From Bilabrum cf. latius (taxonomy: Eukaryota), in the NCBI GenBank assembly GCA_965178125.1, contig OZ237769.1, forward strand, positions 1-64,000: 64,000 nt of DNA, read 5' to 3'. Positions 23 through 21,453 of the stretch are shown here, in pieces. The translations under genes were made by a program, and so were the position numbers. Within the stretch, counting starts at the first letter, position 1, and each line of letters opens with the position of its first letter. Under the pieces are notes generated by a model. The model ran no database searches. It had not been told where the DNA came from and saw nothing but the letters and a program-made list of their open reading frames with translations.

Positions 23-73
23 CTGTTAAACAATTAAGAATTAAAGCTTTAAACCTTTCTTTAAAAAGGACGG

Positions 74-81
74 CAAAAGTA
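74..81 (-). promoter_or_regulatory. Bacteroidota-type -7 promoter element (TAnnTTTG) upstream of rpsF
   Basis: Minus strand TACTTTTG lies about 50 nt upstream of the ATG at 22 and matches the Bacteroidota housekeeping consensus TAnnTTTG. Confidence 0.5.
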
Positions 82-292
82 GGGAAAAAGATGGGAAATG
101 AAGCATGGAGGTTGAAGAAGTTGGGAATTAGTAATTAGTAGCTAGTAACTAGTAGAAAGTAGAAAGACCTTGCCCTGTAGATTTTAGAACCAAGTATTAT
201 TGGTGAGGTGAAATTCTCAAATGCTTCTTAAATGAATCAAGACTTGGAACTAAATCCCATCTTTTTACTCTGTACTAGATACTAAGTACTAT

Positions 293-1666
293 TTATCTAT
301 ACACCCTCACTGTCCCCTGCTCAAACTTCTCAATGCGTCTCCCTCCAATCTCAGCATAATAAGTGATTTTATAAACGAACACTCCCGGTGGAGCATCCAC
401 GCCTTTGGAAGTTCCGTCCCAATAATCACCTATGTTATCATTGCTGAAAACAAGGATGCCCCAGCGATTAAAGATTTCAATTTGATAATTAAAACCGGCG
501 CAAGCACTTTTAATTTCAAATTCATCATTAAAGCCATCGCCATTTGGACTAAATGCATCGGGCATGACCAAATTGCAATCACAGAATTGATAGGATAAGC
601 TAAAATCTGTAGTCCGAACCCCACAAGGATGCACGTATTCGATGCCGTAGAGACCAGCCTCGCGGAAATGGAACAAGCCATTTTGGATAGGACTGCCATT
701 AATTCGCACTTCAGTAAATGGCTCCTGATTGAAGTCATAATAAAAGCTCTGTCTAAAACAAAGGCTTGTATCCGCAGGCAAAGGAACCTTTAGAGAATCA
801 AGATCCAGAAAATCTACGACAATAGTATCCTGGATCGTATCATTGTTTCCCATAATCCTCAGCCAATAGGCTCCACTTTGATAAACCGTTCTACTATGGG
901 AGGTACTGCCATTATCCCATAGGTAGTTTATGGTATTCGTATCGGGCATTATTATTTCCAGCGAATCGCCTAAACATAATGAAGTATCCTGTGGTAATCT
1001 GGGCAAGGGATCTGGAACCTGACCTTGAAAAATGGAATCAATTTGGTTGGAATTTAAGGCGCAGTCAAAAATCTTTAAGTCGTCAATCCTACCCTTAAAA
1101 AAGCGAATAGTCCTGGAGCGATGAGCGCCAATAACCAAGTGTACATAGGCGCTGAAAGAACTACCATTGGAATTGGAAAGTGCACCTGCCCTTAACTGTC
1201 CATTAAAATAGTAAAAGCAACTATCTGGTGTGCGCACCAGTGCAACATGGAACCATTTTGCCGTATCAATTGGCGCTGCATAGGTTAAACTACCTGTACC
1301 TCCTGCCCTACCCACCAAGCTTCCATTATCGATTTCTGAACTAAATGCACCGTAATTAAGGGTGTTGGCATCATGCGAAATAATGGAGCTCCTAGTGTTG
1401 ATTTGCTCTGCGTACGCCCAAAAAGTTACAGTGCGGCTGGGGAAATCATAAGTCGTATAGGTGTCAATATAATCGTCTACCCCGTCAAAATAAACGGCTC
1501 CGTTTGGATTGTTAAAGCGGTCTGGAGCAGGACTTAGGTTTCCGCCAAAAAAGGTTCCATGATTTTGGTAAACACTTGAATCTTGGGCATCACCATTTAA
1601 GGGGAAGTGAGCCCGTAAATCACATTGCGCCGAAATTGATTGGGCACCTAATGCACAGAGAAGAAA
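293..1666 (-). CDS. Bacterial T9SS substrate: LamG-like jellyroll domain plus gliding-motility-associated (type B) C-terminal domain; 5' end cut off by the telomere tract
   Basis: Remnant signal peptide LFLLCALGAQSISAQ; LamG motifs (HFPLNGDAQD, DRFNNPNGAVYFDGVDDYI, WFHVALVR, FKGRIDDLKIFD); CTD motifs PDAFSPNGDGFND...IFNRWG...WDG...GVFVY; TAA stop; AT-rich compared with the rest of the window; no start codon before the repeats. Confidence 0.85.
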   Translation of the reverse strand, partial: FLLCALGAQSISAQCDLRAHFPLNGDAQDSSVYQNHGTFFGGNLSPAPDRFNNPNGAVYFDGVDDYIDTYTTYDFPSRTVTFWAYAEQINTRSSIISHDANTLNYGAFSSEIDNGSLVGRAGGTGSLTYAAPIDTAKWFHVALVRTPDSCFYYFNGQLRAGALSNSNGSSFSAYVHLVIGAHRSRTIRFFKGRIDDLKIFDCALNSNQIDSIFQGQVPDPLPRLPQDTSLCLGDSLEIIMPDTNTINYLWDNGSTSHSRTVYQSGAYWLRIMGNNDTIQDTIVVDFLDLDSLKVPLPADTSLCFRQSFYYDFNQEPFTEVRINGSPIQNGLFHFREAGLYGIEYVHPCGVRTTDFSLSYQFCDCNLVMPDAFSPNGDGFNDEFEIKSACAGFNYQIEIFNRWGILVFSNDNIGDYWDGTSKGVDAPPGVFVYKITYYAEIGGRRIEKFEQGTVRVYR

Positions 1667-2458
1667 TAACCCTAACCCTAACCCTAACCCTAACCCTAAC
1701 CCTAACCCTAACCTAACCCTAACCCTAACCCTAACCCTAACCCTAACCCTAACCCTAACCCTAACCCTAACCCTAACCCTAACCCTAACCCTAACCCTAA
1801 CCCTAACCCTAACCCTAACCCTAACCCTAACCCTAACCCTAACCCTAACCCTAACCCTAACCCTAACCCTAACCCTAACCCTAACCCTAACCCTAACCCT
1901 AACCCTAACCCTAACCCTAACCCTAACCCTAACCCTAACCCTAACCCTAACCCTAACCCTAACCCTAACCCTAACCCTAACCCTAACCCTAACCCTAACC
2001 CTAACCCTAACCCTAACCCTAACCCTAACCCTAACCCTAACCCTAACCCTAACCCTAACCCTAACCCTAACCCTAACCCTAACCCTAACCCTAACCCTAA
2101 CCCTAACCCTAACCCTAACCCTAACCCTAACCCTAACCCTAACCCTAACCCTAACCCTAACCCTAACCCTAACCCTAACCCTAACCCTAACCCTAACCCT
2201 AACCCTAACCCTAACCCTAACCCTAACCCTAACCCTAACCCTAACCCTAACCCTAACCCTAACCCTAACCCTAACCCTAACCCTAACCCTAACCCTAACC
2301 CTAACCCTAACCCTAACCCTAACCCTAACCCTAACCCTAACCCTAACCCTAACCCTAACCCTAACCCTAACCCTAACCCTAACCCTAACCCTAACCCTAA
2401 CCCTAACCCTAACCCTAACCCTAACCCTAACCCTAACCCTAACCCTAACCCTAACCCT
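1667..2458 (+). repeat. Telomeric repeat tract 1, (CCCTAA)n, about 132 units
   Basis: Direct reading; one 5-nt variant near 1710. The C-strand on + is the orientation of a left chromosome end. Confidence 0.99.
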
Positions 2459-5280
2459 GGCAGCTGTCGGTGCGGAACCCTCCTCCGATGACGAGTGAAA
2501 AGCAGCCAGGCGGATGGCAATTGAGGTCAGTGGCAGCTGGGCCAGCTTGTGAGAGGAGCTTGCCAAAGTGCCAGCCAGTGACCCGTTAGGACGGAATAGT
2601 AGGAGCCAAGAGGCATTCTGTTTAGTCTTGGCTGTCAGCCGATGAATACCTTAAGTCAAAGCAATCCATCAATCGAATACAACGGTCATGTACACAATAC
2701 CCATTCTACAATTGACGAATCCACAATGCATTCTACAGAGACAAGCAATTCTTCATCCGGCCATATCGGCGCCGCGCGACAAAAACGGATCCTAATAAAA
2801 TTTTGCCCCATGTTGTGCCCCAGGACCGACCCAATGCAGTTTGAATCATCTTCATATCTACTCTGGTTGCCGAGATCTCAATTCCGTATTTTGGTCCACG
2901 AAACTCTTCATCCGGCCATATCGGCGCCGCGCGACAAAAACGGATCCTAATAAAATTTTGCCCCATGTTGTGCCCCAGGACCGACCCAATGCAGTTTGAA
3001 TCATCTTCATATCTACTCTGGTTGCCGAGATCTCAATTCCGTATTTTGGTCCACGAAACTCTTCATCCGGCCATATCGGCGCCGCGCGACAAAAACGGAT
3101 CCTAATAAAATTTTGCCCCATGTTGTGCCCCAGGACCGACCCAATGCAGTTTGAATCATCTTCATATCTACTCTGGTTGCCGAGATCTCAATTCCGTATT
3201 TTGGTCCACGAAACTCTTCATCCGGCCATATCGGCGCCGCGCGACAAAAACGGATCCTAATAAAATTTTGCCCCATGTTGTGCCCCAGGACCGACCCAAT
3301 GCAGTTTGAATCATCTTCATATCTACTCTGGTTGCCGAGATCTCAATTCCGTATTTTGGTCCACGAAACTCTTCATCCGGCCATATCGGCGCCGCGCGAC
3401 AAAAACGGATCCTAATAAAATTTTGCCCCATGTTGTGCCCCAGGACCGACCCAATGCAGTTTGAATCATCTTCATATCTACTCTGGTTGCCGAGATCTCA
3501 ATTCCGTATTTTGGTCCACGAAACTCTTCATCCGGCCATATCGGCGCCGCGCGACAAAAACGGATCCTAATAAAATTTTGCCCCATGTTGTGCCCCAGGA
3601 CCGACCCAATGCAGTTTGAATCATCTTCATATCTACTCTGGTTGCCGAGATCTCAATTCCGTATTTTGGTCCACGAAACTCTTCATCCGGCCATATCGGC
3701 GCCGCGCGACAAAAACGGATCCTAATAAAATTTTGCCCCATGTTGTGCCCCAGGACCGACCCAATGCAGTTTGAATCATCTTCATATCTACTCTGGTTGC
3801 CGAGATCTCAATTCCGTATTTTGGTCCACGAAACTCTTCATCCGGCCATATCGGCGCCGCGCGACAAAAACGGATCCTAATAAAATTTTGCCCCATGTTG
3901 TGCCCCAGGACCGACCCAATGCAGTTTGAATCATCTTCATATCTACTCTGGTTGCCGAGATCTCAATTCCGTATTTTGGTCCACGAAACTCTTCATCCGG
4001 CCATATCGGCGCCGCGCGACAAAAACGGATCCTAATAAAATTTTGCCCCATGTTGTGCCCCAGGACCGACCCAATGCAGTTTGAATCATCTTCATATCTA
4101 CTCTGGTTGCCGAGATCTCAATTCCGTATTTTGGTCCACGAAACTCTTCATCCGGCCATATCGGCGCCGCGCGACAAAAACGGATCCTAATAAAATTTTG
4201 CCCCATGTTGTGCCCCAGGACCGACCCAATGCAGTTTGAATCATCTTCATATCTACTCTGGTTGCCGAGATCTCAATTCCGTATTTTGGTCCACGAAACT
4301 CTTCATCCGGCCATATCGGCGCCGCGCGACAAAAACGGATCCTAATAAAATTTTGCCCCATGTTGTGCCCCAGGACCGACCCAATGCAGTTTGAATCATC
4401 TTCATATCTACTCTGGTTGCCGAGATCTCAATTCCGTATTTTGGTCCACGAAACTCTTCATCCGGCCATATCGGCGCCGCGCGACAAAAACGGATCCTAA
4501 TAAAATTTTGCCCCATGTTGTGCCCCAGGACCGACCCAATGCAGTTTGAATCATCTTCATATCTACTCTGGTTGCCGAGATCTCAATTCCGTATTTTGGT
4601 CCACGAAACTCTTCATCCGGCCATATCGGCGCCGCGCGACAAAAACGGATCCTAATAAAATTTTGCCCCATGTTGTGCCCCAGGACCGACCCAATGCAGT
4701 TTGAATCATCTTCATATCTACTCTGGTTGCCGAGATCTCAATTCCGTATTTTGGTCCACGAAACTCTTCATCCGGCCATATCGGCGCCGCGCGACAAAAA
4801 CGGATCCTAATAAAATTTTGCCCCATGTTGTGCCCCAGGACCGACCCAATGCAGTTTGAATCATCTTCATATCTACTCTGGTTGCCGAGATCTCAATTCC
4901 GTATTTTGGTCCACGAAACTCTTCATCCGGCCATATCGGCGCCGCGCGACAAAAACGGATCCTAATAAAATTTTGCCCCATGTTGTGCCCCAGGACCGAC
5001 CCAATGCAGTTTGAATCATCTTCATATCTACTCTGGTTGCCGAGATCTCAATTCCGTATTTTGGTCCACGAAACTCTTCATCCGGCCATATCGGCGCCGC
5101 GCGACAAAAACGGATCCTAATAAAATTTTGCCCCATGTTGTGCCCCAGGACCGACCCAATGCAGTTTGAATCATCTTCATATCTACTCTGGTTGCCGAGA
5201 TCTCAATTCCGTATTTTGATGCAAAAAATGAAGATGAAAATATTTTTTCCTCGACCCTGTCCCTGACTTTATATTAGATA
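2456..5280 (+). mobile_element. Telomere-embedded element family A, copy 1 (more 5'-truncated)
   Basis: Appears identical to 6006-8830 (offset 3550). Contains the last codons of the acidic ORF, a unique 3' region, a 155-bp array and a fixed 3' end ...GACTTTATATTAGATA abutting CCCTAA repeats. Confidence 0.7.
2751..5218. repeat. 155-bp tandem array, about 16 copies, no mismatches seen
   Basis: Unit CTTCATCCGGCCATATCGGCGCCGCGCGAC...GGTCCACGAAACT recurs every 155 nt; the last copy is truncated at GTATTTTG. Confidence 0.98.
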
Positions 5281-5497
5281 CCCTAACCCTAACCCTAACC
5301 CTAACCCTAACCCTAACCCTAACCCTAACCCTAACCCTAACCCTAACCCTAACCCTAACCCTAACCCTAACCCTAACCCTAACCCTAACCCTAACCCTAA
5401 CCCTAACCCTAACCCTAACCCTAACCCTAACCCTAACCCTAACCCTAACCCTAACCCTAACCCTAACCCTAACCCTAACCCTAACCCTAACCCTAAC
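5281..5497 (+). repeat. Telomeric repeat tract 2 (internal), about 36 units
   Basis: Direct reading of (CCCTAA)n. Confidence 0.99.
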
Positions 5498-6048
5498 TTA
5501 GTGGAGGAGCTGGCCGCGCCATTGACCAGGAGAAGAGGGGAGCAAGTGGCGCAAGGAGTGGAGCAGCAGCATCACTGCCTCGACAGGACTCTGAGGAAGA
5601 TGAAGAGGAGATCGGTGGTCGGTACCACGCAGACGCAGCCGGAGAGGAGGACGAGGATGAAGCTCCGATAGGGCTCGTGCAGCAGGACGAGGAGGATGGG
5701 GACGAGCTGGATGAGGAAGAAGAGAACGAGGCCCAGAACCAGCAAGACGACTCTGAGAACGACGGTGGAGTGGAGGACAACGGCTTCACCGACTAGCAGC
5801 GGCACCTGGTGGACCGCATTCTCACTGCCTGCGATGACACCGCGCTGGGCGTCAGCCGGACTGTCGACGACATGGTCGAGGACGTGCAGGAAACAATTGC
5901 AGAGAGGGACCACGGATTGGGCATGCTCGCAGACCTGATGACGGCCCTCGAGAAGACGGCGGAAGGAGATCTCAATGCGGCAGACGTGGACGCTGTGGAG
6001 GCGCTCCTGGCAGCTGTCGGTGCGGAACCCTCCTCCGATGACGAGTGA
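5497..6048 (+). CDS. C-terminal fragment of an acidic (D/E-rich) protein carried by element A; no start codon
   Basis: The frame is open from the telomere junction: LSGGAGRAIDQEKR...EEDEEE...DNGFTD*(TAG)QRHLVDRILTACDD...AEPSSDDE-TGA. One in-frame TAG, read as Gln. Confidence 0.7.
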
Positions 6049-8830
6049 AAAGCAGCCAGGCGGATGGCAATTGAGGTCAGTGGCAGCTGGGCCAGCTTGT
6101 GAGAGGAGCTTGCCAAAGTGCCAGCCAGTGACCCGTTAGGACGGAATAGTAGGAGCCAAGAGGCATTCTGTTTAGTCTTGGCTGTCAGCCGATGAATACC
6201 TTAAGTCAAAGCAATCCATCAATCGAATACAACGGTCATGTACACAATACCCATTCTACAATTGACGAATCCACAATGCATTCTACAGAGACAAGCAATT
6301 CTTCATCCGGCCATATCGGCGCCGCGCGACAAAAACGGATCCTAATAAAATTTTGCCCCATGTTGTGCCCCAGGACCGACCCAATGCAGTTTGAATCATC
6401 TTCATATCTACTCTGGTTGCCGAGATCTCAATTCCGTATTTTGGTCCACGAAACTCTTCATCCGGCCATATCGGCGCCGCGCGACAAAAACGGATCCTAA
6501 TAAAATTTTGCCCCATGTTGTGCCCCAGGACCGACCCAATGCAGTTTGAATCATCTTCATATCTACTCTGGTTGCCGAGATCTCAATTCCGTATTTTGGT
6601 CCACGAAACTCTTCATCCGGCCATATCGGCGCCGCGCGACAAAAACGGATCCTAATAAAATTTTGCCCCATGTTGTGCCCCAGGACCGACCCAATGCAGT
6701 TTGAATCATCTTCATATCTACTCTGGTTGCCGAGATCTCAATTCCGTATTTTGGTCCACGAAACTCTTCATCCGGCCATATCGGCGCCGCGCGACAAAAA
6801 CGGATCCTAATAAAATTTTGCCCCATGTTGTGCCCCAGGACCGACCCAATGCAGTTTGAATCATCTTCATATCTACTCTGGTTGCCGAGATCTCAATTCC
6901 GTATTTTGGTCCACGAAACTCTTCATCCGGCCATATCGGCGCCGCGCGACAAAAACGGATCCTAATAAAATTTTGCCCCATGTTGTGCCCCAGGACCGAC
7001 CCAATGCAGTTTGAATCATCTTCATATCTACTCTGGTTGCCGAGATCTCAATTCCGTATTTTGGTCCACGAAACTCTTCATCCGGCCATATCGGCGCCGC
7101 GCGACAAAAACGGATCCTAATAAAATTTTGCCCCATGTTGTGCCCCAGGACCGACCCAATGCAGTTTGAATCATCTTCATATCTACTCTGGTTGCCGAGA
7201 TCTCAATTCCGTATTTTGGTCCACGAAACTCTTCATCCGGCCATATCGGCGCCGCGCGACAAAAACGGATCCTAATAAAATTTTGCCCCATGTTGTGCCC
7301 CAGGACCGACCCAATGCAGTTTGAATCATCTTCATATCTACTCTGGTTGCCGAGATCTCAATTCCGTATTTTGGTCCACGAAACTCTTCATCCGGCCATA
7401 TCGGCGCCGCGCGACAAAAACGGATCCTAATAAAATTTTGCCCCATGTTGTGCCCCAGGACCGACCCAATGCAGTTTGAATCATCTTCATATCTACTCTG
7501 GTTGCCGAGATCTCAATTCCGTATTTTGGTCCACGAAACTCTTCATCCGGCCATATCGGCGCCGCGCGACAAAAACGGATCCTAATAAAATTTTGCCCCA
7601 TGTTGTGCCCCAGGACCGACCCAATGCAGTTTGAATCATCTTCATATCTACTCTGGTTGCCGAGATCTCAATTCCGTATTTTGGTCCACGAAACTCTTCA
7701 TCCGGCCATATCGGCGCCGCGCGACAAAAACGGATCCTAATAAAATTTTGCCCCATGTTGTGCCCCAGGACCGACCCAATGCAGTTTGAATCATCTTCAT
7801 ATCTACTCTGGTTGCCGAGATCTCAATTCCGTATTTTGGTCCACGAAACTCTTCATCCGGCCATATCGGCGCCGCGCGACAAAAACGGATCCTAATAAAA
7901 TTTTGCCCCATGTTGTGCCCCAGGACCGACCCAATGCAGTTTGAATCATCTTCATATCTACTCTGGTTGCCGAGATCTCAATTCCGTATTTTGGTCCACG
8001 AAACTCTTCATCCGGCCATATCGGCGCCGCGCGACAAAAACGGATCCTAATAAAATTTTGCCCCATGTTGTGCCCCAGGACCGACCCAATGCAGTTTGAA
8101 TCATCTTCATATCTACTCTGGTTGCCGAGATCTCAATTCCGTATTTTGGTCCACGAAACTCTTCATCCGGCCATATCGGCGCCGCGCGACAAAAACGGAT
8201 CCTAATAAAATTTTGCCCCATGTTGTGCCCCAGGACCGACCCAATGCAGTTTGAATCATCTTCATATCTACTCTGGTTGCCGAGATCTCAATTCCGTATT
8301 TTGGTCCACGAAACTCTTCATCCGGCCATATCGGCGCCGCGCGACAAAAACGGATCCTAATAAAATTTTGCCCCATGTTGTGCCCCAGGACCGACCCAAT
8401 GCAGTTTGAATCATCTTCATATCTACTCTGGTTGCCGAGATCTCAATTCCGTATTTTGGTCCACGAAACTCTTCATCCGGCCATATCGGCGCCGCGCGAC
8501 AAAAACGGATCCTAATAAAATTTTGCCCCATGTTGTGCCCCAGGACCGACCCAATGCAGTTTGAATCATCTTCATATCTACTCTGGTTGCCGAGATCTCA
8601 ATTCCGTATTTTGGTCCACGAAACTCTTCATCCGGCCATATCGGCGCCGCGCGACAAAAACGGATCCTAATAAAATTTTGCCCCATGTTGTGCCCCAGGA
8701 CCGACCCAATGCAGTTTGAATCATCTTCATATCTACTCTGGTTGCCGAGATCTCAATTCCGTATTTTGATGCAAAAAATGAAGATGAAAATATTTTTTCC
8801 TCGACCCTGTCCCTGACTTTATATTAGATA
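5498..8830 (+). mobile_element. Telomere-embedded element family A, copy 2 (longer, still 5'-truncated)
   Basis: Flanked on both sides by CCCTAA tracts; starts mid-ORF with no ATG; same 3' end as copy 1. Confidence 0.7.
6301..8768. repeat. 155-bp tandem array, about 16 copies (second array)
   Basis: Same unit and same copy number as 2751-5218. Confidence 0.98.
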
Positions 8831-9350
8831 CCCTAACCCTAACCCTAACCCTAACCCTAACCCTAACCCTAACCCTAACCCTAACCCTAACCCTAACCCT
8901 AACCCTAACCCTAACCCTAACCCTAACCCTAACCCTAACCCTAACCCTAACCCTAACCCTAACCCTAACCCTAACCCTAACCCTAACCCTAACCCTAACC
9001 CTAACCCTAACCCTAACCCTAACCCTAACCCTAACCCTAACCCTAACCCTAACCCTAACCCTAACCCTAACCCTAACCCTAACCCTAACCCTAACCCTAA
9101 CCCTAACCCTAACCCTAACCCTAACCCTAACCCTAACCCTAACCCTAACCCTAACCCTAACCCTAACCCTAACCCTAACCCTAACCCTAACCCTAACCCT
9201 AACCCTAACCCTAACCCTAACCCTAACCCTAACCCTAACCCTAACCCTAACCCTAACCCTAACCCTAACCCTAACCCTAACCCTAACCCTAACCCTAACC
9301 CTAACCCTAACCCTAACCCTAACCCTAACCCTAACCTAACCCTAACCCTA
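8831..9350 (+). repeat. Telomeric repeat tract 3 (internal), about 86 units
   Basis: Direct reading; one 5-nt variant near the right junction. Confidence 0.99.
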
Positions 9351-10154
9351 GTTTCTCCTAACACGAACGCCGGATCAACGCATAGTACCGAGCCTTCCGA
9401 TGCAGTACAAATTTGCTGTAGTACGGAATACAAATGGCTACGCTAGTGCGCAGATACATGCGTACCAACCTATACAATGAACCGCAAGCTTTCTTGAGCT
9501 ATGCAGCTTGCAGCGATGCAAATGCCCCGTCGAACGGCAAGACAGTCCAAGACGAAGTCACCGGGAACCACTCCAAGCAACTTCCACGGCGATGTGTGTT
9601 CCTACTTGGGACCTAAACCATGCTTCTACATCATTCAATCCCTCGAACTTTTCGAATCCTGGCAGCAGTCGGTCGTGTTCCGTAATCAACTGTTGCCAGT
9701 GGCGCCGCGCACACACCCTGAGCCAAAATATCCGTTCAGTGCAACACCCATTGCAACAAGTCTAGGATGGCCAGTGAACATTTTTGCACCATCGATAATG
9801 CGTGCAGTATCGTTAATGAAAAGGACTAGCTCGCATCTATGCGCAAGGTGCTTACACGGTTGGAGCAAGCCCTAACTCGACGGTCCATTCATTGGCAGCA
9901 AGTACCAGTGAGACCAGCTGTTGCACATGCTACAATGGTCCCGTCATGGCTCGCTAACTGATATTAAGTATATACCCGTATAATAACTTTCGCAGATCGC
10001 AGAGGAGAAATTGAGCTTAATCCGCGAGTTCAACCACGACTAGCCAAATCCACCCCGTGAAGTGAGACGTTTTTCATCGGTTTGCATCAACCAGTTACAA
10101 ATTTCAGTTTTCGGCACAAGTGCTACGCTTATAATTTCATGCGCCATCTCACAG

Positions 10155-10577
10155 ATGGATGGTGTCGAGACCCAAGAGATCGAGGACTGTCTCCGCTTGC
10201 TGCAAGTAAAAGCTGCTGACTTCGACAACTTGCTGGCTTCTCTACTCGTGGTGTACGATACACCGAGCGCCAATGCAGAGATCTCCCACAAGACGACCAT
10301 TCAATGGCTGCTGGAATCATCAGACCTACATTCCGATGTATCTTTGGTTGATTGCTGCCAATATGCTCCTCATGATCACCTCCCCGCGCAAGCAGCGCTG
10401 GCAAGCAGGACAGTGGCTCCCTCAGTGCATATTGATGGAGTGAGGTAGCCGTTGGCGGGTCCAACGGAGCACCTGCAGTCGCCAGGCAGTAGCAGCAGTA
10501 ACAGCAGTAACAGCAGTAGCAGCAGTAGCAGCAGTAGCAGCAGTAGCAGCAGTAGCAGCAGTAGCAGCAGTAGCAGT

Positions 10578-10616
<39 letters not shown>

Positions 10617-13600
10617 CGCAGTCTGTCAGGAGGTGCAAGCCAAGCCTCTGGGAGCTCACCAGCCCGTCCTCGCTCATCGAGAAGCGGTGGTCCCAGCAGC
10701 AGCCACAGTCTGTCAGGAGGTGCAAGCCAAGCCTCTGGGAGCTCACCAGCCCGTCCTCGCTCATCGAAGAGCGGTGGTCCCAGCAGCAGCCACAGTCTGT
10801 CAGGAGGTGCAAGCCAAGCCTCTGGGAGCTCACCAGCCCGTCCTCGCTCATCGAGAAGCGGTGGTCGCAGCAGCAGCCGCAGTCTGTCAGGAGGTGCAAG
10901 CCAAGCCTCTGGGAGCTCACCAGCCCGTCCTCGCTCATCGAGAAGCGGTGGTCCCAGCAGCAGCCATAGTCTGTCAGGAGGTGCAAGCCAAGCTTCTGGA
11001 GGTGCATCAGGCCGCATTCTGTCCCGACCAGCACCAGCGTCTGGCCAATAGAGGATGGTGGAGCTGTCACCATCGCAGAGATTCTTAGCAGATATGTGCC
11101 TTGGATTTGCACCATTGCCTCCTGTCCGTAGACAAGGAGCTCGTGCTGCGGCAAGAAAGAAGGCCATTGTTGCGGAGAGTCGATCATCTGGCTAGCCAAT
11201 CCCACCAAGTGCCAGCCGAGGCCTTCCAAGCTCGGCGTCAAGAAGGAGATCGACAAGCAGCACACTTTCGGACCGACCGTAGAGCTTTGCAGCGTTCTAG
11301 GTTCCCCCACTCTCTGACGACATGCCGCTGTCTTGTCACTGTGATTCTGCCTTTGATTTAGATGGATACACTGCACTTGGAGCGGTAGCGTGTTGTACTG
11401 GCACAGGTGAAGATGAGACTTCGAACTACTTCCTGCCTCAAACGTTGGCAAGGCCGCTGGGGCTGGACGGATCGGACCATACACTGCTGGACTGGATCAC
11501 AGATGGCGTTCTAGGCGTCCATGACTCAGATTCGCTGCTTCCGTCGTATACCAGCTTGTCTCAATCGCCTGCTTCTGGCGTGGTAGTTCGAGCGGCACAT
11601 GCCCAGCGCCCACCTGCAGGAGGCTCGATGCGACTAGCATGGTCGTCACACATTGATGGCGGTGATAGCGTCTTCAAGGATGAGCAGACTGCCATGCGAT
11701 GGTCTTCGTTAGAGAAACACGGGGATACCTTGGAGGTTGCGAGCGTGGTGGCCAAGGTGCATGCTCTGCGCCAGCAAAGTCCGCACGGTATTGGTGGCAC
11801 GAACATTCGGGTCCTGGCAGCTGGGGCTTAGGCAGACGTGTCTAGATATAGCAAACACATTGAGTAGCAGTGCAAACGTGAGTACCAGTGGACTCTCGAC
11901 AAAGCTGACAGGGGAGGCTGGTCCTCAGTGCTCCCGCACGCTGGAACCTTGTGGAGTCGGGCCGTGCATCAAGCGTCATCGAGCGGCCAGAGCGATCAAT
12001 AGGCTAATCTACCAAAGCTTCATGTCCTGAGCGGTCTTGCAACTGATATTCACGTTCAGCTTTTCGACGTTGGTGCAGCTACAGTGTCTGTCATGGTGCC
12101 GGGTGGTTTGCTTGCCTTCTGTCGAGACCTGATCGACGCCTTTGAACCTCCTATTAGGTCACTGCAACACACGCTTGATTCTGAAGGGGTTGTGGAACTA
12201 GCAAACGACGAGGGATTCTGGACCCAAGGATCACACATCGATGTCATTCGGAGTTGTTTGCTGTACGTGTTTGGCTCGGGCCTACGAGCTGCTGCCAAGA
12301 AGCTCGATTGGTAGGGACCCGAGCTAGTGATTCGTGTATAGCGCGGAGGTGGGCAAACTGGTGGATTCAAGTCATCTCTCACGCATGTTGCCAGTGGGCG
12401 AGGCCCGTAGACAAGCAGATTCTGGCCCAGTTCTCACACTCGGGACCGTAGTCCATCACGATTTCTGTCAAGTGCATTTCATTGGGTGCGATGCTTGGGG
12501 TATCCTGCTGTTGGTCAGACTGATGTGTCTGACTCCGACTCCGAGTCTGACTCCAGGTCTGACTCCGACTCTGGTGTGAGTGAGGCCACAGAAGCAAGGC
12601 AAGCAGAATCCGTTGCAGTGCTTGGCCGGGACAACTGGCTCTAGGATCAGGACGGCTTGCTGCGGCGCATGGTGCACGTTTCTCACTACAACCGATTCCT
12701 CATGATATTGCTCATGAGGCAGGTGGCAAGATGCTCAGTGTTTTATGTATAGCGAGTCGGCTGCAAGGCTTGCAAGCCGATGTCTCTCTTGCTGCAGGCT
12801 GCACAGCAACAGATGCGCAGAGCAGAGGCAGACATTGCTGCTCAGCAGTCAGCACGGGAGCGCGCTCGACAAGCTGCGATGGATGAAAGCGATGAAGAGG
12901 ACGCCAGAGGACGGAGAGGTGAGTGGTTTGGTCCGACAGGAGATCGCAGTGACGGGACATCAAGGACTCCCACAGGTCCAAGCTCTACAACAGCTGCCAG
13001 CAGCAAGCCAAAGACGCGTGTTGCCAGTCGATAGATGCAGACTGGCGTGGCGCAGGCGCGTGCATGGAGTGGATCTTAGTAGCGTCGAGGTATGCGAGAT
13101 CTTGCGGCCATCATTCATCCGCATGGTCTGCTGACTCCCCAGCAAGACGCAGACATGGCCACGTACTGCAGTTTTGGCGTTGGCTTTGAATTGTGTGGCC
13201 AGCCCTCGCACACAGTAGCAATTCCCAACCCAGCTATGATAAAGTTCATGCACAGCAGTCGTGATGAGCTTTTGCAAGAGGTTGTGCATGGTACGCCGCT
13301 CGAACGGGCTCGGTACGCCGTGGTGCGAGAGGCTACTCGTCCCTACGGGGCACTGGCGTCGGTTGGCGAGTACGCTGGGACATTGCAAGGGAAGCTGCCG
13401 TCTTCTATCTCTTGGGGTGACATCGCTGCAATACACCAGCGTGTACTTGCCAAGGATACCGCGCATGCAACCAGTGACGACGGGGGTATATCGTCCTTCC
13501 TGCCATTTGGCTGCCTGCTGTCGTCGTAGTTGCACGTGTATCAGCCCGGAGCGTTCCGATCCCAATAGCCAAGTCCAGGGACGCACGATTCCGCGCATGA

Positions 13601-16403
13601 TCTATTTCGGCGGCGTGTTCTCTCCAGGCTGCGCCACTCTGCTGAGACAGACGCACAAAGAGCAGTTGCACCCGTTGCGCGAGGTAGAGATGTCGCAGCT
13701 GCTAGTGGAGCACTCGAGACACTGCCAATTCGCAGGCATATACAGTGTGGGCTTCAAACAGCATACGAACAAAGCATGCAAAGGCTGTCGAAAGGCCTGA
13801 AAGGGTCAACGCGAGGCGAATTCGACGTGCCCGCATCAACCATGGCCTTGATGCTGGGCTGCGTGATGCTACCAGCTGAAGCAATCTACTAGCAGCAGCG
13901 CCCTGAGCACCGCGCCTAGACTACTGAAGAGTATTCTGAAGCTCCTTTCGCACGCCATTTCATAGAAGTCGTGCATGACGATGTCATGGAGGACTACATA
14001 CAGTTGGTTTACACTACTTTCAATCGAGCCCTCCAAAGGATCCAGAGGTTGCTTGTGGCATCTGTCTGCGGTTCTGACAGGATTCCGACATTCCAACGTT
14101 CTGCAATGTGGGCGCTAGCGGCATCAATGTCCCGGTGTTGCTTAGAAGGATGGGTGGCTTTACGAACGGATGCATGGTCGCAGGTTGTTGCAGAACAAAC
14201 TGCTGTGACATGGCTACCTGCAACAAGGCCTGTCCTGCGCAACCTTGGACCTGCTACAATTGAGTGGCAGGTCGTCCGCGACTGTCTGCAGTCATCTGGG
14301 TGCATGCCAGAGCAATCTGCTGTTGTTGCAGTCGCAGCAGCAATCGTCGATCAAGTTGCCAGTGCCGTGCATTCCGTTCGCGCTGGGGACGGCCACGGCT
14401 CGCGCCTGAACTCGTGGACGGTTTTAGCCGTATGTGAAATCATAGTTACGTCTTGGAGCCTTTGCGCCGTAGCAGAGTGCAACGGAATGACATGGCAAGT
14501 GGCCAGGAGGTCCACGCAATATGCCCTCTGTGGGCTTGTGTCGGCGCACGATAGCGAGCAGTTTAGGATGGGGATTAGTGGTGTCAATAGCGGGGTCGCA
14601 GGATTTCGCGCAATGGTACGAGCTGACGTTGTGGCGGCCATTCTAGACAAACTTCCTGTTCGGTGCTAGCTAGTCTATGACATGCGGGCGCTGACCGGTA
14701 TCAACGTTGCTATCACGATTGAGATGGAGCTCAGGAAGCTGTATCTGGCACAGTTGCATTTGCCAAAGCTCCACCTACGCAACGGCACACGGAAGGGAAT
14801 GCTAGCAAGGGGTAGTCTGGCTGTAGCACTGTACGGGCAGCTTGTGTCTCGATTGAAGTGCTCGAGGAGCTCGATCTTGGTGGGTCTGAGGTCGTGCATA
14901 TCGAAGACAGCAGTCTGCCCGTACCCCACCGCGGCTGCCATGTGGCGCGGGTCGACGAATGCAGGCAATTTCAGGGCAGATTACGCTACCAAGTCCTCTG
15001 CTCGAGCGTCTGGCCTTCCTGTTGCCGTTCTGACGACAGAGTCCCCAACCATGCAGCGCACGCTTCCTGCGGAATCCTCAGTAAAGACGTCGTATGTCGC
15101 GGCTCTGCTGCGAGCCGTTGTGAGCACCAGGCCGCAAGGACAGCCATCAGTAGCAGACGAGCAGTTCCGCAGCATGCTGTCCCAATGGCTGCTTCCAGCT
15201 TGCGTAATTGGATCTGCAACATTGCTACCAGACCGTATACAGCGAACTTAGCTGCCTGGAATCAAGCGACCGAGAGGTGATCAAGCACCAGACGCGGAGG
15301 ATGGACCGACCGTGGTGGTTGGGCCACCTCCAGCATCCGCATAGCCTGCCGTCATTGTTGCCCAGCGCGTCGAAGAGTTCATGGTGGAGCATGGCAAGTG
15401 GCAGATTCCAAGGTTTGGTGACAAGCAGACGTTTCAGGGAACCTTGAACCGACCAGATGGGTCTCTCAGGCGGGTGATCGATGTATGCTACCATGGCGCA
15501 GGCCTGTGCGTGGACCTGCAAGCAGCTCCATTCACCGTGCCTGCACTTTCGGATGCTCCGTACAACAAGTTGGCGGGCAAGGGAGACCTACGAATCTGCA
15601 TGCAGGACGACTTAAAGATTGTGCATGCTGCTCGCACGGAAGTCGCTCGCATCATTGGCGGTCAGGAACGTCTAAAGAGGATCCACAGATATAGGATATG
15701 GCAGGCAACCAGGGAAAGTTATCCCGCGCTGCCCAACGATACGCCCGATTTGTTCCGGCGTGCTTGCTCTGGTGAAGACATCGGGGCTACCAGCGCATCA
15801 ACGCAGTAGCCTTCAGCATCATTGAGTCCTGTCATGGAGAACCATGCAAGCCAGCAATGGCCCTCCGAACACAGTGATGAAGAGCATGATGAAATGCCGC
15901 GTTCCAAGAAGCGCTTCCGGCGGCCAGACATCCCAATAGCTTCACTGACCGGAACGTCGGGAGCTGTCAGTGACGGTGGTTTCAAGCCTCCGGCAATTGG
16001 CAACTACCAGTCTGGGCGGCCAGCATCCAGTGGAGCTGGGAGTGGTGGTGACGCGTTTACATTGCAGTCGTCACTAGGCATAGACGCAAGGAAACGTGCA
16101 GCATTGGCTGGTCTGGCACCGCCCTAGGGTTCCTCGAGCGGCACCGCAGCAGCACCCAGGGGGATCCAGCGGCTTGCAGCATCTAGCGAGGCAGAAGGAG
16201 CAGACGAGGAGGACGAGCAACGCTTGGCGATATCGCCCGTGTCAAGTTCGAGCCTACGTAGTCATGGCTCAGAAGCGTTGGAGCATGCCTACTCAGGTGC
16301 TCGTGGTGAAGTGGAGACGCTGGTTCCAGGCCATCCGCCGCAATGGATCTCCATTCCAGCCCTCGACGACGTATACTGGGACCATGACACGTATTGGGAT
16401 TGA
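10155..16403 (+). CDS. Orphan protein of about 2,080 aa (TAG read as Gln) with an N-terminal poly-Ser tract and 29-aa repeats; may have additional upstream exons
   Basis: Track ORFs 10062, 10452, 11322, 12084, 12780, 13092, 13971, 14682, 15381 and 15822 are all in one frame. The bridging segments contain only TAG stops (25 counted) and no TAA or TGA until TGA at 16401-16403. Confidence 0.8.
10487..10995 (+). repeat. (AGC/AGT)n microsatellite followed by about 4.3 copies of an 87-bp coding repeat
   Basis: CAGTCTGTCAGGAGGTGCAAGCC... recurs at 10619, 10706 and onward, encoding SLSGGASQASGSSPARPRSSRSGGPSSSH. Confidence 0.95.
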
Positions 16404-18597
16404 CAAATTGAACAAGAGTTTAGCTATGAGCAAGTACTATTCGACCTATGCTGAACAGTTTTCTAGAAATGGTCTGGAAACCAATATATGGGGCTGCCTC
16501 CAACACGTCGTCCTACATGTTGTACCAAGCCACATACTCCGTTCCGTAGATTGGTTGTTGTACAAGTACTAAGACTTTATGTATCGAGTTGGGATGCGGT
16601 CCACAAAGCGTACTGATCCCAATCGTGCACGGACACATCCGGTGACCTGACTTGCTGTGGTGACTGCCTGCCAGTGGGCTGATTCCGACGTCCGGGTTAT
16701 CAATTCCGTCCTAGGATGCCGCCGAAATGTTTCATTGAAACCTACTTAGTATCGTAGCCTGAGGTGCCGGTCAGTTGGTCAGCAAAGGAAGTCGCTTGTG
16801 CTGGCTGGCACTGAGGAGCAGTGGGGGCTTCAGCATGTCAACTGGAGGACAGCGATGCCTGCTGCGTAGCGTGTGGAATTAGACTAGATTGAATTGATGT
16901 ATGAATATGATGCGCCAGCGTTATCAAATCGCGAAGCTGTGCACGGTTCTCGTATACTTCTGGCAGCTGGAGCACCTGCTAACGTGAGCAAATCTCAAAT
17001 ATTCCCCCAAGTAATGCATAAATCGAACTGATAGCTATGATCAAGTGCAACGAAATAATAACTTGCTTGAAACAATGACGAGATTGACCGTATACACTGC
17101 TGAGTCTGGCTGCATCGTGAAGCTCAGACGCCGCGCCGCGGCATGCTGGTTCCGCTGTTCGCGACCGTTTGTGGATTCTGGCGCAACCACACCTCTCCGC
17201 GCCACAGACCGGCTCAACTGTCCTGGGGGCTGTTGGGATTCATGTTAATTACCATTTACTGCCATACATCGTTGTGTGTTCAAGGTGGAATGCTGCTGTG
17301 GCTCTGCTTTGGTCTCGTCTCCTTGGGGCGCGCGATGGCGTTTGCAGACAGAACAGCTAGGTACCGCATAGCCCGAGTACAACAACCGCCAGGTATTTTG
17401 ATTCTATTGTATTCATTCAGTTTGTTTGCTTTGTATTTGTGTTAGGTTCTGGCATCTGAATGGGAAGGTCGCTGGTCTGCTGACGTGCTTGTGCGTTGTC
17501 CAGTTTTCATGACAGCACTCAGGTATGCTGCCATGCATCGAGGGGCTATAAATTTGTTTTCAATCGTTTCATTCTTTTCCTATGCATTGCAGGCAGCCTT
17601 TAGGACCCACCTGTGCTGATGAGACCCTCTCGCCGCTTCTGGCAAACATTGCATGGAACTGAGCAGATCCGTGCGGTGGGCGAGCAGAGAGTCAGACCGG
17701 CCAACCGTATAGGGATCCGTACGGATGGCGGTTGATTCTTTGGTCTCTTCAGGGCAGTCCCAATGATGCGTCCCGTCCCCAGCTCCTGGACTCGGCCTTC
17801 GGCGGCACGCCCGTCATCCTCTCACGCGGCTGCCCGCGCACCCTCCCAGCACTTAGTCCTTGAGTCGGGCGGGAGCGCGGGTGCGTGCTTCGAGGCAGCG
17901 CGTGCCCCCGGGGCGAGAAGGAGCAGGCCAATGACGAGGAGCAGCATCCCGGGACAGGTGTCTCTGTAGATCCGATCGTCGAGTGTGGAGGTGTGTGTGG
18001 CAACACGATGAACCTGATGTCCCAGATCCGCAATGAGGTGGGGCAGGCAGTGCATGGGGAGCGCAAGCTCCTCGTGCACGCGCTTCATGCCGGCTCGCTG
18101 CCATCGGCCGCTGACTTGATCCCCGGGCTCGCGCACTTGTCGCGGCCCGTGCTGTCTCAGTCACGGACGGGCGAGCTGGATGGAGCACCTGCCCGACGGG
18201 GAGACAACCCCCTATTCTCGCGGGCGAAACACAGCAGGGCACACCTCCTTGGCAAACCCAATTTGCACGACGCGGTTTGGTCCAGACTCGCCGGGTGGGC
18301 GTCCATCCCGTGCAGCCCCCTGGGTGCTCGTCACCCACGGGCCGCACTGCCGAGGAGACCGCGGCCGAGATTCATTGCAAACCAAGCAGACACACATAAT
18401 CAAACACCAAATATGCATTGCCAATCACTTGCACCTCTTGCCGACTGCTTGCATCCTTGCAACTGGCCCAGATCCGCCTCAGTGCGATCTTGCGACCACT
18501 TCGACACTGCGCGGCACCGCCGTCTTTGCGGAACATGTCAACTTCTGCGGAACATGTCAACTTTCGCGGCGCCTTACCCTTCCCTGAGATGGTACTG

Positions 18598-19110
18598 TAA
18601 CCCTAACCCTAACCCTAACCCTAACCCTAACCCTAACCCTAACCCTAACCCTAACCCTAACCCTAACCCTAACCCTAACCCTAACCCTAACCCTAACCCT
18701 AACCCTAACCCTAACCCTAACCCTAACCCTAACCCTAACCCTAACCCTAACCCTAACCCTAACCCTAACCCTAACCCTAACCCTAACCCTAACCCTAACC
18801 CTAACCCTAACCCTAACCCTAACCCTAACCCTAACCCTAACCCTAACCCTAACCCTAACCCTAACCCTAACCCTAACCCTAACCCTAACCCTAACCCTAA
18901 CCCTAACCCTAACCCTAACCCTAACCCTAACCCTAACCCTAACCCTAACCCTAACCCTAACCCTAACCCTAACCCTAACCCTAACCCTAACCCTAACCCT
19001 AACCCTAACCCTAACCCTAACCCTAACCCTAACCCTAACCCTAACCCTAACCCTAACCCTAACCCTAACCCTAACCCTAACCCTAACCCTAACCCTAACC
19101 CTAACCCTAA
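18598..19110 (+). repeat. Telomeric repeat tract 4 (innermost), about 85 units, followed by degenerate units to about 19132
   Basis: Direct reading; decays into ACCCTATAATCTAAAACCTAAA, as is typical of the proximal edge of a native telomere. Confidence 0.98.
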
Positions 19111-19132
19111 ACCCTATAATCTAAAACCTAAA

Positions 19133-20393
19133 GACATGGACTGCCGGATCTCGGGGCAGGATCGAGTGCTTGGGTGCTTGGGTGCTGGGTGGACTGGTGG
19201 AGCGCGCGGGACATGGACTGCCAGATCTCGCGGCAGGATCGAGTGCTTGGGTGCTTGGGTGCTGGGTGGACTGGTGGAGCGCGCGGGACATGGACTGCCA
19301 GATCTCGCGGCAGGATCGAGTGCTTGGGTGCTTGGGTGCTGGGTGGTCTGGTGGAGCGCGCGGGACATGGACTGCCAGATCTCGGGGCAGGATCGAGTGC
19401 TTGGGTGCTTGGGTGCTGGGTGGACTGGTGGAGCGCGCGGGACATGGACTGCCGGAGCTCGCGGCAGGATCGAGTGCTGGGGTGCTTGGGTGCCGGGTGG
19501 ACTGGTGGGGCGCGCGGGACATGGACTGCCAGATCTCGGGGCAGGATCGAGTGCTTGGGTGCTTGGGTGCCGGGTGGACTGGTGGAGCGCGCGGGACATG
19601 GACTGCCAGATCTCGCGGCAGGATCGAGTGCTTGGGTGCTTGGGTGCTGGGTGGTCTGGTGGAGCGCGCGGGACATGGACTGCCAGATCTCGCGGCAGGA
19701 TCGAGTGCTTGGGTGCTTGGGTGCTGGGTGGACTGGTGGAGCGCGCGGGACATGGACTGCCAGATCTCGGGGCAGGATCGAGTGCTTGGGTGCTGGGTGG
19801 ACTGGTGGAGCGCGCGGGACATGGACTGCCAGATCTCGGGGCAGGATCGAGTGCTGGGATGCTTGGGTGCTGGGTGGACTGGTGGAGCGCGCGGGACATG
19901 GACTGCCGGATCTCGCGGCAGGATCGAGTGCTTGGGTGCTTGGGTGCTGGGTGGACTGGTGGAGCGCGCGGGACATGGACTGCCAGATCTCGCGGCAGGA
20001 TCGAGTGCTTGGGTGCTTGGGTGCTGGGTGGACTGGTGGAGCGCGCGGGACATGGACTGCCAGATCTCGCGGCAGGATCGAGTGCTTGGGATGCTTGGGT
20101 GCTGGGTGGACTGGTGGAGCGCGCGGGACATGGACTGCCGGATCTCGCGGCAGGATCGAGTGCTGGGGTGCTTGGGTGCTGGGTGGTCTGGTGGAGCGCG
20201 CGGGACATGGACTGCCAGATCTCGCGGCAGGATCGAGTGCTTGGATGCTTGGGTGCTGGGTGGACTGGTGGAGCGCGCGGGACATGGACTGCCAGATCTC
20301 GCGGCAGGATCGAGTGCTTGGGTGCTTGGGTGCTGGGTGGACTGGTGGAGCGCGCGGGACATGGACTGCCAGATCTCGCGGCAGGATCGAGTG
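19133..20393. repeat. 77-bp subtelomeric satellite, about 16 slightly diverged copies
   Basis: Unit GACATGGACTGCCAGATCTCGCGGCAGGATCGAGTGCTTGGGTGCTTGGGTGCTGGGTGGACTGGTGGAGCGCGCGG, with point variants and one 8-nt-shorter copy. Confidence 0.97.
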
Positions 20394-21453
20394 CATGAGC
20401 CGCGTTAGGAACGCGATCACATGAAAGGTAAATAAAATTTGTTGAAGGTATCTTTTTGCTTGCCGGTGTTCATGCTTTTCTGGTACCGGCACTGGGTCCG
20501 CCATTTACTATGATATAAGGTGTAGGCCTACATGCCTGCACATGAACAGTAGGCTGTCGAACTCCAGCTCAGTGTCAAAATTAACCCACTGTTGCAGACT
20601 CAGCCGCCATAATCCTGAGTAAATATACACGTTTAAGTTAGGAGACCGAATTCACTGAAAACTATATCGTAGTCTGTTCCATTGAGAGCGGCTGAATTAG
20701 GACGAACCGAGCCATCTCGATTGCCGTTTGTATATTGCTCGCATTCTGCTTTGATAGTATTCGCCCTACCTTGCCTGCTACTCGAATTGGCCCTGCTGAA
20801 GCAACACTTCTCTGTCGAGATGACGCCGCGATCACTGCCGACAAGAGCCGCTCGGCCTCCAGCCACCCTGTGACATCCCAAATGGGTCATCCTTGAATTT
20901 GTCAGCCTGCAAATATCCCCAGCAGCGACTAGTATACCGATTTAGATTTCGTCATTTTGGTTCTACTGATTCGGCGCTGCAGCCGTCAGTCGATGGACCC
21001 CTCTTTGGGGAAGGGGGTTATAAACTCCTCAAGGTAGCACCCCCTTTTGTTGACACCCTGTTGCTACCCCCCCCCCCCCCCCAAAAACCCGTGTGCAACC
21101 CCTTGGCGGGGTCTGTCTGATATCGCTTAGCTTCCGGGGAATTCCATTCCAGGCTTGATTCCACCGCCAGCGGGCGACAGAAGCACGGGTCCGACGGAAG
21201 ACGGACTTGAATCAGAGCTTCGCCTGGGTTTTGACTCGTGAAGTCCTCGTTAGACGCTCATTTCCGCCTGGGCACAACGGGTGAAAGAGTTGAGCAACGG
21301 CATCGACCTGCAGCCATACGCGAAACACGCCATGGCGTCTTCCGTGTGAGACCACCATTACGTGTCTAAGAGCTATTAGTATTGCTTGCGCCCCTGCATC
21401 ACCGCGATCGTCAGCCAAGTCCGCTCTGAATCGCGCCCCGCAGTCGGGCAGGC

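Follow-up and report, generated by a model that had tools for sequence, protein, structure and literature searches.

A unit of 9,247 nucleotides (nt) near the left end of a chromosome contig from the protist Bilabrum cf. latius, here called unit B, is best filed as a telomere-embedded element set apart by a giant orphan open reading frame (ORF), by a 3′ module of 1.46 kb that is shared with other copies and probably non-coding, and by its host, in which the stop codon TAG most likely encodes glutamine (Gln). It occupies positions 9351–18597 of the stretch that we analysed (the window; 64,000 nt, positions 1 to 64,000 of the forward strand of contig OZ237769.1, assembly GCA_965178125.1) and shares a stack of telomere-bounded units with two copies of a second element, element A. 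Tentatively, and at somewhat less than an even chance, we take unit B by analogy for a telomere-specific, non-autonomous element resembling HeT-A and MoTeR2, which would have been added to the chromosome end 3′ end first and then re-capped. Telomere-embedded elements are known to occur alongside telomerase repeats in only a few lineages (silkworm, rotifers, Giardia and blast fungi). Such elements are the main models for the relation between retroelements and telomerase and for instability at chromosome ends.

A stack of telomere-bounded units

The left 20 kb of the window consists of units parted by four C-strand telomere tracts, all of one polarity (Tandem Repeats Finder), and we infer the order chromosome, telomere, B, telomere, A, telomere, A, telomere. 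Unit B, whose junction sequences were read directly, comprises a 0.8-kb leader, one intronless ORF for 2,082 amino acids and a 2.2-kb untranslated tail. An earlier note on this DNA, made from the letters alone, had the unit bounded by two CCCTAA tracts with the polarity found at element A, and the tracts at 8830–9350 and 18598–19116 agree with it. The stack is made up as follows.

1–1668: DNA of bacterial origin (Bacteroidota, Croceimicrobium-like) that abuts the outermost telomere tract
1667–2458: outermost telomere tract, TAACCC ×132, 792 nt (Tandem Repeats Finder), probably terminal
2459–5279, + strand: element A copy 1, the more 5′-truncated copy, containing a 155-bp array
5280–5497: interstitial telomere tract, ACCCTA ×36, 218 nt (Tandem Repeats Finder)
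5498–8829, + strand: element A copy 2, starting inside an ORF, with its 3′ end as in copy 1
5254–5266 and 8804–8816: the C-strand-like motif of unit B with one extra base, at the element A 3′ ends
8830–9350: interstitial telomere tract distal to unit B, ACCCTA ×87, 521 nt (Tandem Repeats Finder)
9351–10154, + strand: 5′ leader of unit B, with no convincing coding signal
10155–16403, + strand: orphan ORF, 2,082 amino acids, 25 TAG codons read as Gln, TGA stop
16404–17140, + strand: non-coding stretch 3′ of the ORF, continuous with the ORF body on one contig path
17141–18597, + strand: 3′ terminal module, 1.46 kb, multi-copy, common to at least one other element family
18576–18587, + strand: C-strand-like motif ACCCTTCCCTGA at the unit B 3′ end
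18588–18597, + strand: terminal decamer GATGGTACTG, kept in variant copies, with TAACCC directly after it
18598–19116: proximal telomere tract, TAACCC ×86, 519 nt, with a degenerate base
19133–20394: 77-bp subtelomeric array, 16.5 units, 95% matches, directly inside the proximal tract

Unique sequence followed by C-strand repeats is unlike a chromosome end; it is the outcome of addition onto a G-strand 3′ end with the new tip re-capped afterwards. Two processes yield such a polarity: terminal reverse transcription, or break-induced copying from an end that already has this structure. Because the proximal tract has a degenerate base and is followed by the subtelomeric array, it is probably the former terminal telomere of the chromosome. 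Inward of the array lie ordinary genes, with FG-GAP, EGF, tail-collar, PDIA6-like, Pol kappa and LRR matches in Pfam. Spurious ORFs of 400–800 amino acids cross the 77-bp array and the telomere tracts on both strands.

At the outer end, window positions 1–1668 (G+C content 0.425) are identical at 1,668 of 1,668 nt to a locus (L001) in the chromosome of a Croceimicrobium sp. metagenome-assembled genome, and carry a minus-strand ORF with CHU_C and Laminin_G_3 domains (Pfam), a type IX secretion system (T9SS) CHU_C / Laminin_G_3 gene. Beyond the junction at 1668/1669 the bacterial record carries on with different sequence. The join of bacterium to telomere is probably a chimeric read or assembly at a natural chromosome end, although it may be a real capture of foreign DNA; if it is chimeric, the 792-nt tract is the true terminus.

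The two copies of element A are identical at 2,821 of 2,821 nt (2459–5279 and 6009–8829), and both include a 155-bp array (15.9 units, 100% identity). Copy 2 reaches 511 nt further 5′ and opens within an acidic ORF (TGA at 6045–6047), in which Pfam found no family. The right junction is the same in both copies, ...TTATATTAGAT|ACCCTAA, and the left junction of copy 1 shows a CCT microhomology to the telomere repeat. The expectation of variable left ends is thus borne out for element A, which has two different 5′ ends; unit B is known with one 5′ end, and no telomere-capped truncated copy of it is among the 20 of 34 loose ends displayed in the contig comparison below. A blastn comparison of unit B with the whole window returned only the unit's own internal repeats, and blastp found no similarity between the ORF of element A and the orphan protein. 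The earlier impression that the two share no visible sequence therefore holds by blastn, save for one telomere-like 3′ motif of 12–13 nt. This motif, ACCCT(N0-1)TCCCTGA, lies 10–13 nt before each telomere junction in A and B and is absent elsewhere in the window; its 3 matches in 64 kb compare with 0.06 expected, a post hoc figure given that the pattern was derived from these same ends.

The multi-copy 3′ module and its telomere junction

Unit B meets the proximal tract at ...GATGGTACTG|TAACCC. Contigs from public runs X2, X1, X5 and X7 were placed on 11000–18597, and the results cover the part displayed (29 of the 89 pieces, 20 of the 34 loose ends and 40 of the 81 differences). Across the eight runs listed, none of which is recorded as RNA, the content of sampled words was 0.93–0.94 in X1–X4 (run organism A, one study), 0.60 and 0.40 in X5 and X6 (run organism B), 0.00 in X8 (also organism B) and 0.06 in X7 (run organism C). 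In all four runs (4/4) the module was several-fold deeper than the ORF body, with depths in X1 of 777–1093 versus 126. Among the pieces shown, its variant contigs differ by about 2–15%. The interval 18060–18263 is the same in every copy in X1 (depth 981.6). X2, X5 and X7 have in common a 30-nt loose end ahead of 17141, so that the commoner variant of the module has a different upstream sequence.

At the other end of the module, loose ends behind 18573 in X1, X5 and X7, which come from three studies, read ...GGATGGTACTG and then TAACC(C), and B-type contigs in X1 and X2 pass 18597 by 11 and 17 letters. The recurrence of these variant ends, together with the depth, shows that the module–telomere junction is real, recurrent and precise and that the module is a repeat family. 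The right junction is as the earlier note gave it and recurs in variant copies. In keeping with that note's idea of a telomere-riding family, unit B belongs to a family whose right junction with the telomere repeats is fixed, the module being multi-copy with variants from three studies.

The ORF body behaves differently from the module. It follows a single path, on which X1 record 2 covers 11537–17364 at depth 126, and this record and X2 record 13 both run on through the stretch 3′ of the ORF (16404–17140, with negative codon scores) as far as 17364 with 0 differences. X5 contributes an identical ORF-body contig of 3.6 kb and X7 two identical contigs of 151 nt. Records 9–13 of X2 cover the ORF body at depth 153–223, save for two short segments that are 2–4 times deeper than their neighbours (13134–13561 at 735 and 14347–14876 at 456). 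These deep segments suggest locally identical paralogues, arising by gene conversion or as mosaic copies.

The module itself is probably non-coding, as judged from its sequence. A search with the module's ORF gave one frame-shifted fragment (P0015), which tracks a variant copy across two or more reading frames of the window; module variants carry single-base insertions or deletions at 17307, 17429 and 17557, and Pfam found no family in it. The splice-like signals at 17360–17592 that had hinted at further exons lie in this probably non-coding module, whose frames are not kept between copies. We also considered a membrane protein starting from an ATG at 17143 and interrupted by two small introns, and rejected it on the frames not kept in P0015, the single-base insertions or deletions and the negative codon scores.

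The orphan reading frame, its genetic code and the neighbouring genes

The frame at 10155–16403 contains 25 in-frame TAG codons, no TAA and a single TGA, which is terminal, whereas the other five frames of the same interval hold 24–58 TGA, 4–7 TAA and 16–26 TAG. It is thus depleted of TGA and TAA far beyond chance and not of TAG, as expected if TAG is a sense codon. Translation confirmed what the earlier note had seen, one 6.2-kb frame of 2,082 residues interrupted by 25 TAGs alone; the ten short ORFs from which it had been pieced together are a product of reading with the standard code. The judgement that such a frame is unlikely by chance is upheld by the comparison with the other five frames, and the frame is a real coding region, conserved also in diverged copies. 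Its codon-usage score is the highest among the + frames in most windows of the scan. In the leader these scores are negative in all frames to about 10100; Pfam found nothing in a leader ORF at 9498–9875, and a scan of the leader for bacterial-type promoters and terminators, irrelevant for a eukaryote, stayed at chance level.

Use of TAG as a sense codon extends to the host genes. TAG accounts for 25 of 120 Gln-type codons in the orphan ORF, in which Gln makes up 5.8% of the protein, and for 25 of 165 such codons in genes of the host. Window ORFs that are long and carry Pfam domains have 4–11 in-frame TAGs; a Pol-kappa-like ORF (58151–61072) has 11, of which the one at residue 211 falls within the span of the IMS match (residues 130–403). 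TGA ends the four domain-bearing ORFs checked (4/4) as well as the orphan ORF. In alignments with diverged copies, Q stands opposite TAG in 7 of the 13 cells aligned, or 6 of the 12 distinct positions with a residue; the remaining cells hold P, S, S, N, E and H, and there is one gap. That TAG is a sense codon, most likely for Gln, in the ORF and the host genes is well supported by these sequence comparisons, and the earlier reading of TAG as Gln is borne out both by the alignment and by TAG use in host genes. Gene callers that apply the standard code break up the genes of this organism at TAG.

The same effect may show in the relatives of the orphan protein. A search with residues 620–1819 against 1.84 billion representatives returned 11 proteins, all short (43–364 amino acids) and 32–94% identical, which tile the query as pieces of three or more diverged copies would, with identities of about 85%, 66% and 31%. 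Two fragment boundaries adjoin TAGs of the window's ORF: the TAG at 1505 lies between the end of P0013 (1503) and the start of P0002 (1507), and P0002 ends at 1697, just ahead of the TAG at 1699. This pattern suggests that the 11 fragments are standard-code gene calls on genes with the same code. A word-index search gave 3 matches among 8,000 scored candidates, and P0008 as a query matched only itself. Protein-guided scans produced 127 pattern matches in metagenome contigs and 3 in viral contigs, none of which was confirmed by tblastn, and the junction 25-mer had no match (0) in metagenome, genome or viral contigs. By sequence the 2,082-residue protein is an orphan with detectable relatives only within its own family.

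Poly-serine is encoded at 10486–10612 and Ser/Gly-rich repeats of 29 amino acids at 10619–10999. Of residues 100–300 of the protein, 79% are Ser, Gly, Pro, Thr or Ala, encoded by 9-bp and 87-bp tandem repeats (Tandem Repeats Finder). The earlier note had recognised no domain, and Pfam likewise assigned none to the protein, to pieces of it or to the six frames. The whole protein gave nothing at E up to 0.01; four overlapping pieces and P0008, at E up to 10, gave only DUF3150 (E 0.37) and RICTOR_N (E 0.0086), both far under their cut-offs; and six-frame read-through of 9351–18597 at E up to 0.1 gave only a poly-Q match to TFIIA (19.6 bits against a cut-off of 36.2). PHROGs returned nothing for the protein, and searches of the PDB reached a best E of 0.09 by sequence and of 0.78 and 0.31 with two profiles. 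Regular expressions for Walker A, DExD/H, YxDD, CCHC and GIY-YIG motifs found one LSDD only. AlphaFold2 models built on 7-row alignments had mean predicted local distance difference test (pLDDT) scores of 30.6 (residues 1201–1910) and 46.2 (residues 600–1200) and were mostly helical at very low confidence, with a single long helix predicted confidently. The models are too poor for fold matches from them to have meaning.

The remainder of the window has features of its own. A PDIA6-like protein disulfide isomerase gene (56429–57958, + strand) has an intron of roughly 0.1 kb between EFYAP and WCGHCK, within the motif of its first thioredoxin active site, which shows that spliceosomal introns occur in the host. 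On the − strand at 51234–54494, a 1,086-residue ORF with 5 in-frame TAGs has Phage Tail Collar (PF07484, E 5.9e-13) as its sole recognised domain, on a eukaryotic chromosome. Between 27 and 51 kb the window is rich in repeats, both tandem and dispersed, with units of 39, 232, 271, 97, 305 and 277 bp (28271–30302, 44765–44957, 47944–48608 and 50111–50663) and contains duplicated ORF-like stretches without Pfam families (for example 30474–31214 resembling 31472–32407, and 45839–46675 resembling 49560–50402). A tRNA scan of the window found none.

Competing origins and known telomeric elements

In the reading that we tentatively favour, transcription of unit B would follow the + strand and might continue into the TAACCC tract downstream, and the G-rich 3′ overhang of the chromosome end would prime reverse transcription from the 3′ end of this RNA. 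Priming there would lay the copy down 3′-end-proximal, with its sense strand pointing inward. The reverse transcriptase (RT) would be supplied in trans, by an RT-bearing sibling with the same 3′ module or by telomerase. Telomerase would then re-cap the new distal (5′) end, leaving the old telomere as an interstitial tract, and repeated rounds would build the stack of B, A and A between telomere tracts. The ORF product might be a structural or targeting protein for the element RNA, a role proposed purely by analogy with HeT-A Gag. Arguing for this origin are the inward-pointing sense strands of both unrelated elements, their precise 3′ termini with a common telomere-like 3′ motif, the joining of the module to different interiors and the 5′ truncation of element A with seed microhomology. 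Two marks of telomere-targeted elements that lack long terminal repeats (non-LTR elements of the MoTeR, SART/TRAS and GilT type), namely fixed orientation and a recurrent, precise 3′ junction in telomere repeats, are found in the A copies and the module variants. A related idea, to which we give a small chance, is that of a new class of telomere-specific mobile element in a protist with telomerase: host telomerase or another RT acting in trans would copy this polymerase-less element onto chromosome ends by taking its RNA as an alternative template, and the orphan protein would recruit that RNA to the chromosome end.

Several observations weigh against this origin. Pfam found no RT, endonuclease, Gag zinc knuckle or other family in six frames of the unit, nor any such family in 39 other ORFs of the window, so that an RT-bearing partner is assumed. 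The ORF body follows its single path with 0 differences, and none of the 20 loose ends shown (of 34) is a telomere-capped truncated copy, which leaves the mobility of unit B putative. At the 3′ end, Rfam (E up to 0.1, positions 1–21000) reported no hammerhead or other match, its two sub-threshold hits both lying in the Ser-repeat DNA at 10519–10602; predicted RNA folding of the last 150 nt of B and A is no different from that of shuffled sequences (z −0.9 and +0.6); there is no poly(A) at the unit B 3′ end; and the offset of 10–13 nt between motif and junction is unexplained by simple overhang priming at the motif. The contig also holds one probably artificial join, of bacterium to telomere, and both the left junction of unit B (9350/9351) and the linkage to the chromosome are as given by the assembly. 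Finally, the interstitial tracts are long (36–87 repeats), more like the native-length tracts of Pyricularia than the tracts between MoTeRs.

This last point leads to the main alternative, to which we give a somewhat smaller chance: that unit B and element A are Y′-like subtelomeric units spread by break-induced replication, with variable left ends produced by erosion and telomerase healing and the ORF belonging to a fast-evolving subtelomeric family. A shortened telomere would invade an internal telomere tract at another chromosome end or on the sister chromatid and copy all that lies distal to that tract. In Pyricularia, telomere failure and break-induced amplification yield native-length interstitial telomeres that bound tandem subtelomeric repeats (PMC8381367). 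The tracts here (218–521 nt) come near the length of the outer tract, which matches that pattern. Such a history would also fit the 100% identity of the two A copies over 2,821 nt, as after recent tandem duplication, the lack of any RT in the unit or the scanned window ORFs, the single path of the ORF body and the X2 segments of 2–4 times greater depth, which would be mosaic paralogues or products of gene conversion; fixed right junctions would be inherited whenever a junction was copied. It leaves unexplained, however, the inward sense strand in two unrelated elements, the same telomere-like motif near their precise 3′ termini and the origin of the first junction between unique sequence and C-strand repeats in each family. 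It also needs extra recombination to join the module exactly at 17141 to two upstream sequences, and the helicase ORF that is the hallmark of yeast Y′ and fungal TLH units was not found.

We regard it as improbable that the ORF is an ordinary single-copy, lineage-specific gene in a rearranged subtelomere, with the tracts as relics of breakage and healing and only the 1.46-kb module dispersed. The ORF body and 16404–17140 do form one path with 0 differences in X1 and X2, shallower than the module; the loose ends displayed (20 of 34) include no truncated copy of B capped by a telomere, and codon and TAG use are host-like. Against a mere gene, however, unique sequence followed by C-strand repeats in this polarity is no simple healed break, the module–telomere junction recurs in variants from three studies, the ORF family has several diverged copies, and GC content at third codon positions is 0.54 in the ORF, below the 0.64 and 0.71 of the two host genes measured. 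Even less probable is an assembly artefact: unit B would be genuine DNA, and mis-joined reads carrying telomere repeats would account for its position between these tracts or for the stack as a whole. The contig does join 1,668 nt of bacterial chromosome to a telomere tract, its 155-bp arrays and A copies are suspiciously perfect, and the run contigs, spanning 11000–18597, test neither 8830–9351 nor the far side of 18597. Yet module variants that end in this one decamer and then TAACC(C) turn up independently in contigs of runs from three studies, the B-type contigs of X1 and X2 extend beyond 18597 by those 11 and 17 letters, and the polarity of the tracts is as sequential terminal addition predicts, which random end-to-end joins would not produce. 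Least probable of all, and in our view very much so, is that the 2,082-residue protein is a novel polymerase or recombinase mobilising element A and itself. Its position next to two A copies, its size and the common 12–13-nt 3′ motif had made a helper conceivable, but Pfam, PDB and motif searches revealed neither a catalytic domain nor a catalytic motif, low-complexity Ser/Gly/Pro sequence takes up about 200 residues, and the AlphaFold2 models are mostly helical at very low confidence. The earlier suggestion of a helper for element A is not supported, for want of an enzymatic domain and of protein similarity to the ORF of A.

If the favoured reading is true, this case would add to the known telomeric elements one from a protist with a reassigned stop codon, and one whose sole coding capacity is a giant orphan protein; the shared 3′ module and fixed junction would offer a handle for finding an autonomous partner. 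If instead the recombination reading is true, there would be a Y′-like system outside fungi. Under either, chromosome ends that are fragile and change fast are to be expected from the long interstitial telomere tracts. Limited searching of the literature turned up no description of the element.

The ORF of the Saccharomyces Y′ element encodes a helicase and is transcribed toward the chromosome end. Unlike Y′, unit B has an ORF that points inward and is stacked with an unrelated type of unit, and the orphan protein has no Pfam helicase family, Walker A or DE[AVI][DH] motif, so the label Y′-like does not apply in the helicase-ORF sense. HeT-A Gag is defined by its CCHC zinc knuckles; neither a zf-CCHC or Gag family in Pfam nor the regular expression C..C....H....C matched the orphan protein. 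In other respects unit B resembles both Y′ and the repeats of foxtail strains of Pyricularia (PMC8381367): all are multi-kb, telomere-flanked and stacked, have a very long ORF and can be amplified by recombination. Of the feature that marks Y′ and TLH units, telomere flanks at several ends, the flanks are present, and the module is multi-copy while the ORF body follows a single path.

The terminons of bdelloid rotifers, with their Athena elements (endonuclease-deficient and Penelope-like), are likewise large multi-kb telomeric units, arranged head-to-tail and 5′-truncated by telomere repeats, with 3′ ends that abut reverse-complement telomere repeats (PMC6431247). They may, as unit B does, carry ORFs of unknown or structural function (PMC6431247). 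A and B both run with their 3′ ends onto C-strand repeats, and 5′-truncated copies were seen for A. Terminons are, however, described as having many ORFs, where unit B has one, and as always including an Athena-type RT and a 3′ hammerhead, neither of which was found in unit B (PMC6431247). Pfam detected no RVT or telomerase family in the ORF, its pieces or the six frames of 9351–18597, and with no RT there and no hammerhead ribozyme the suggestion of a terminon-like element is not upheld. HeT-A of Drosophila is closer in plan: it is found only at telomeres, encodes one non-enzymatic protein and uses an RT in trans, and it has a very long 3′ untranslated region and a head-to-tail arrangement with the 3′ end centromere-ward (PMC5537684). 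Its 5′ erosion at the chromosome tip counts as a further likeness (PMC5537684). HeT-A differs in ending in poly(A), which unit B lacks, and Drosophila is without the telomerase-type repeats that part the elements here (PMC5537684); the two have no sequence similarity.

The nearest parallels are with the MoTeR elements, telomeric non-LTR retrotransposons of Magnaporthe (Pyricularia) oryzae. MoTeR1 and MoTeR2, like B and A, are embedded in (CCCTAA)n, head-to-tail and in one orientation, with telomere tracts between them (PMC7367193). The two MoTeRs share termini around unrelated interiors (PMC7367193), which is paralleled here by the 3′ module with its different upstream sequence. As in element A, MoTeRs are 5′-truncated with short seed microhomology at the new telomere, present at 17 of 23 truncated MoTeR junctions, and they have telomere-like variant repeats inside an element end (PMC7367193). 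MoTeR2, as is the case for unit B, lacks an RT and has end sequence in common with another member whose interior is unrelated (PMC7367193). The differences are those of arrangement and content. Neither the unit nor the 39 further window ORFs scanned yielded an RT-bearing member, with a REL- or APE-type endonuclease; A and B have their telomere-like motif at the 3′ end and MoTeR has its own at the 5′ end; the common terminal part is a 1.46-kb 3′ module in the family of unit B and 77 bp in MoTeR; and the interstitial tracts have 36–87 repeats here, against half a repeat to about 20 or more between MoTeRs (PMC7367193). MoTeR2 carries 786 bp without evident function where unit B has a conserved ORF for 2,082 amino acids (PMC7367193), and the host of unit B is a protist that would read TAG as Gln, whereas that of MoTeR is a fungus.

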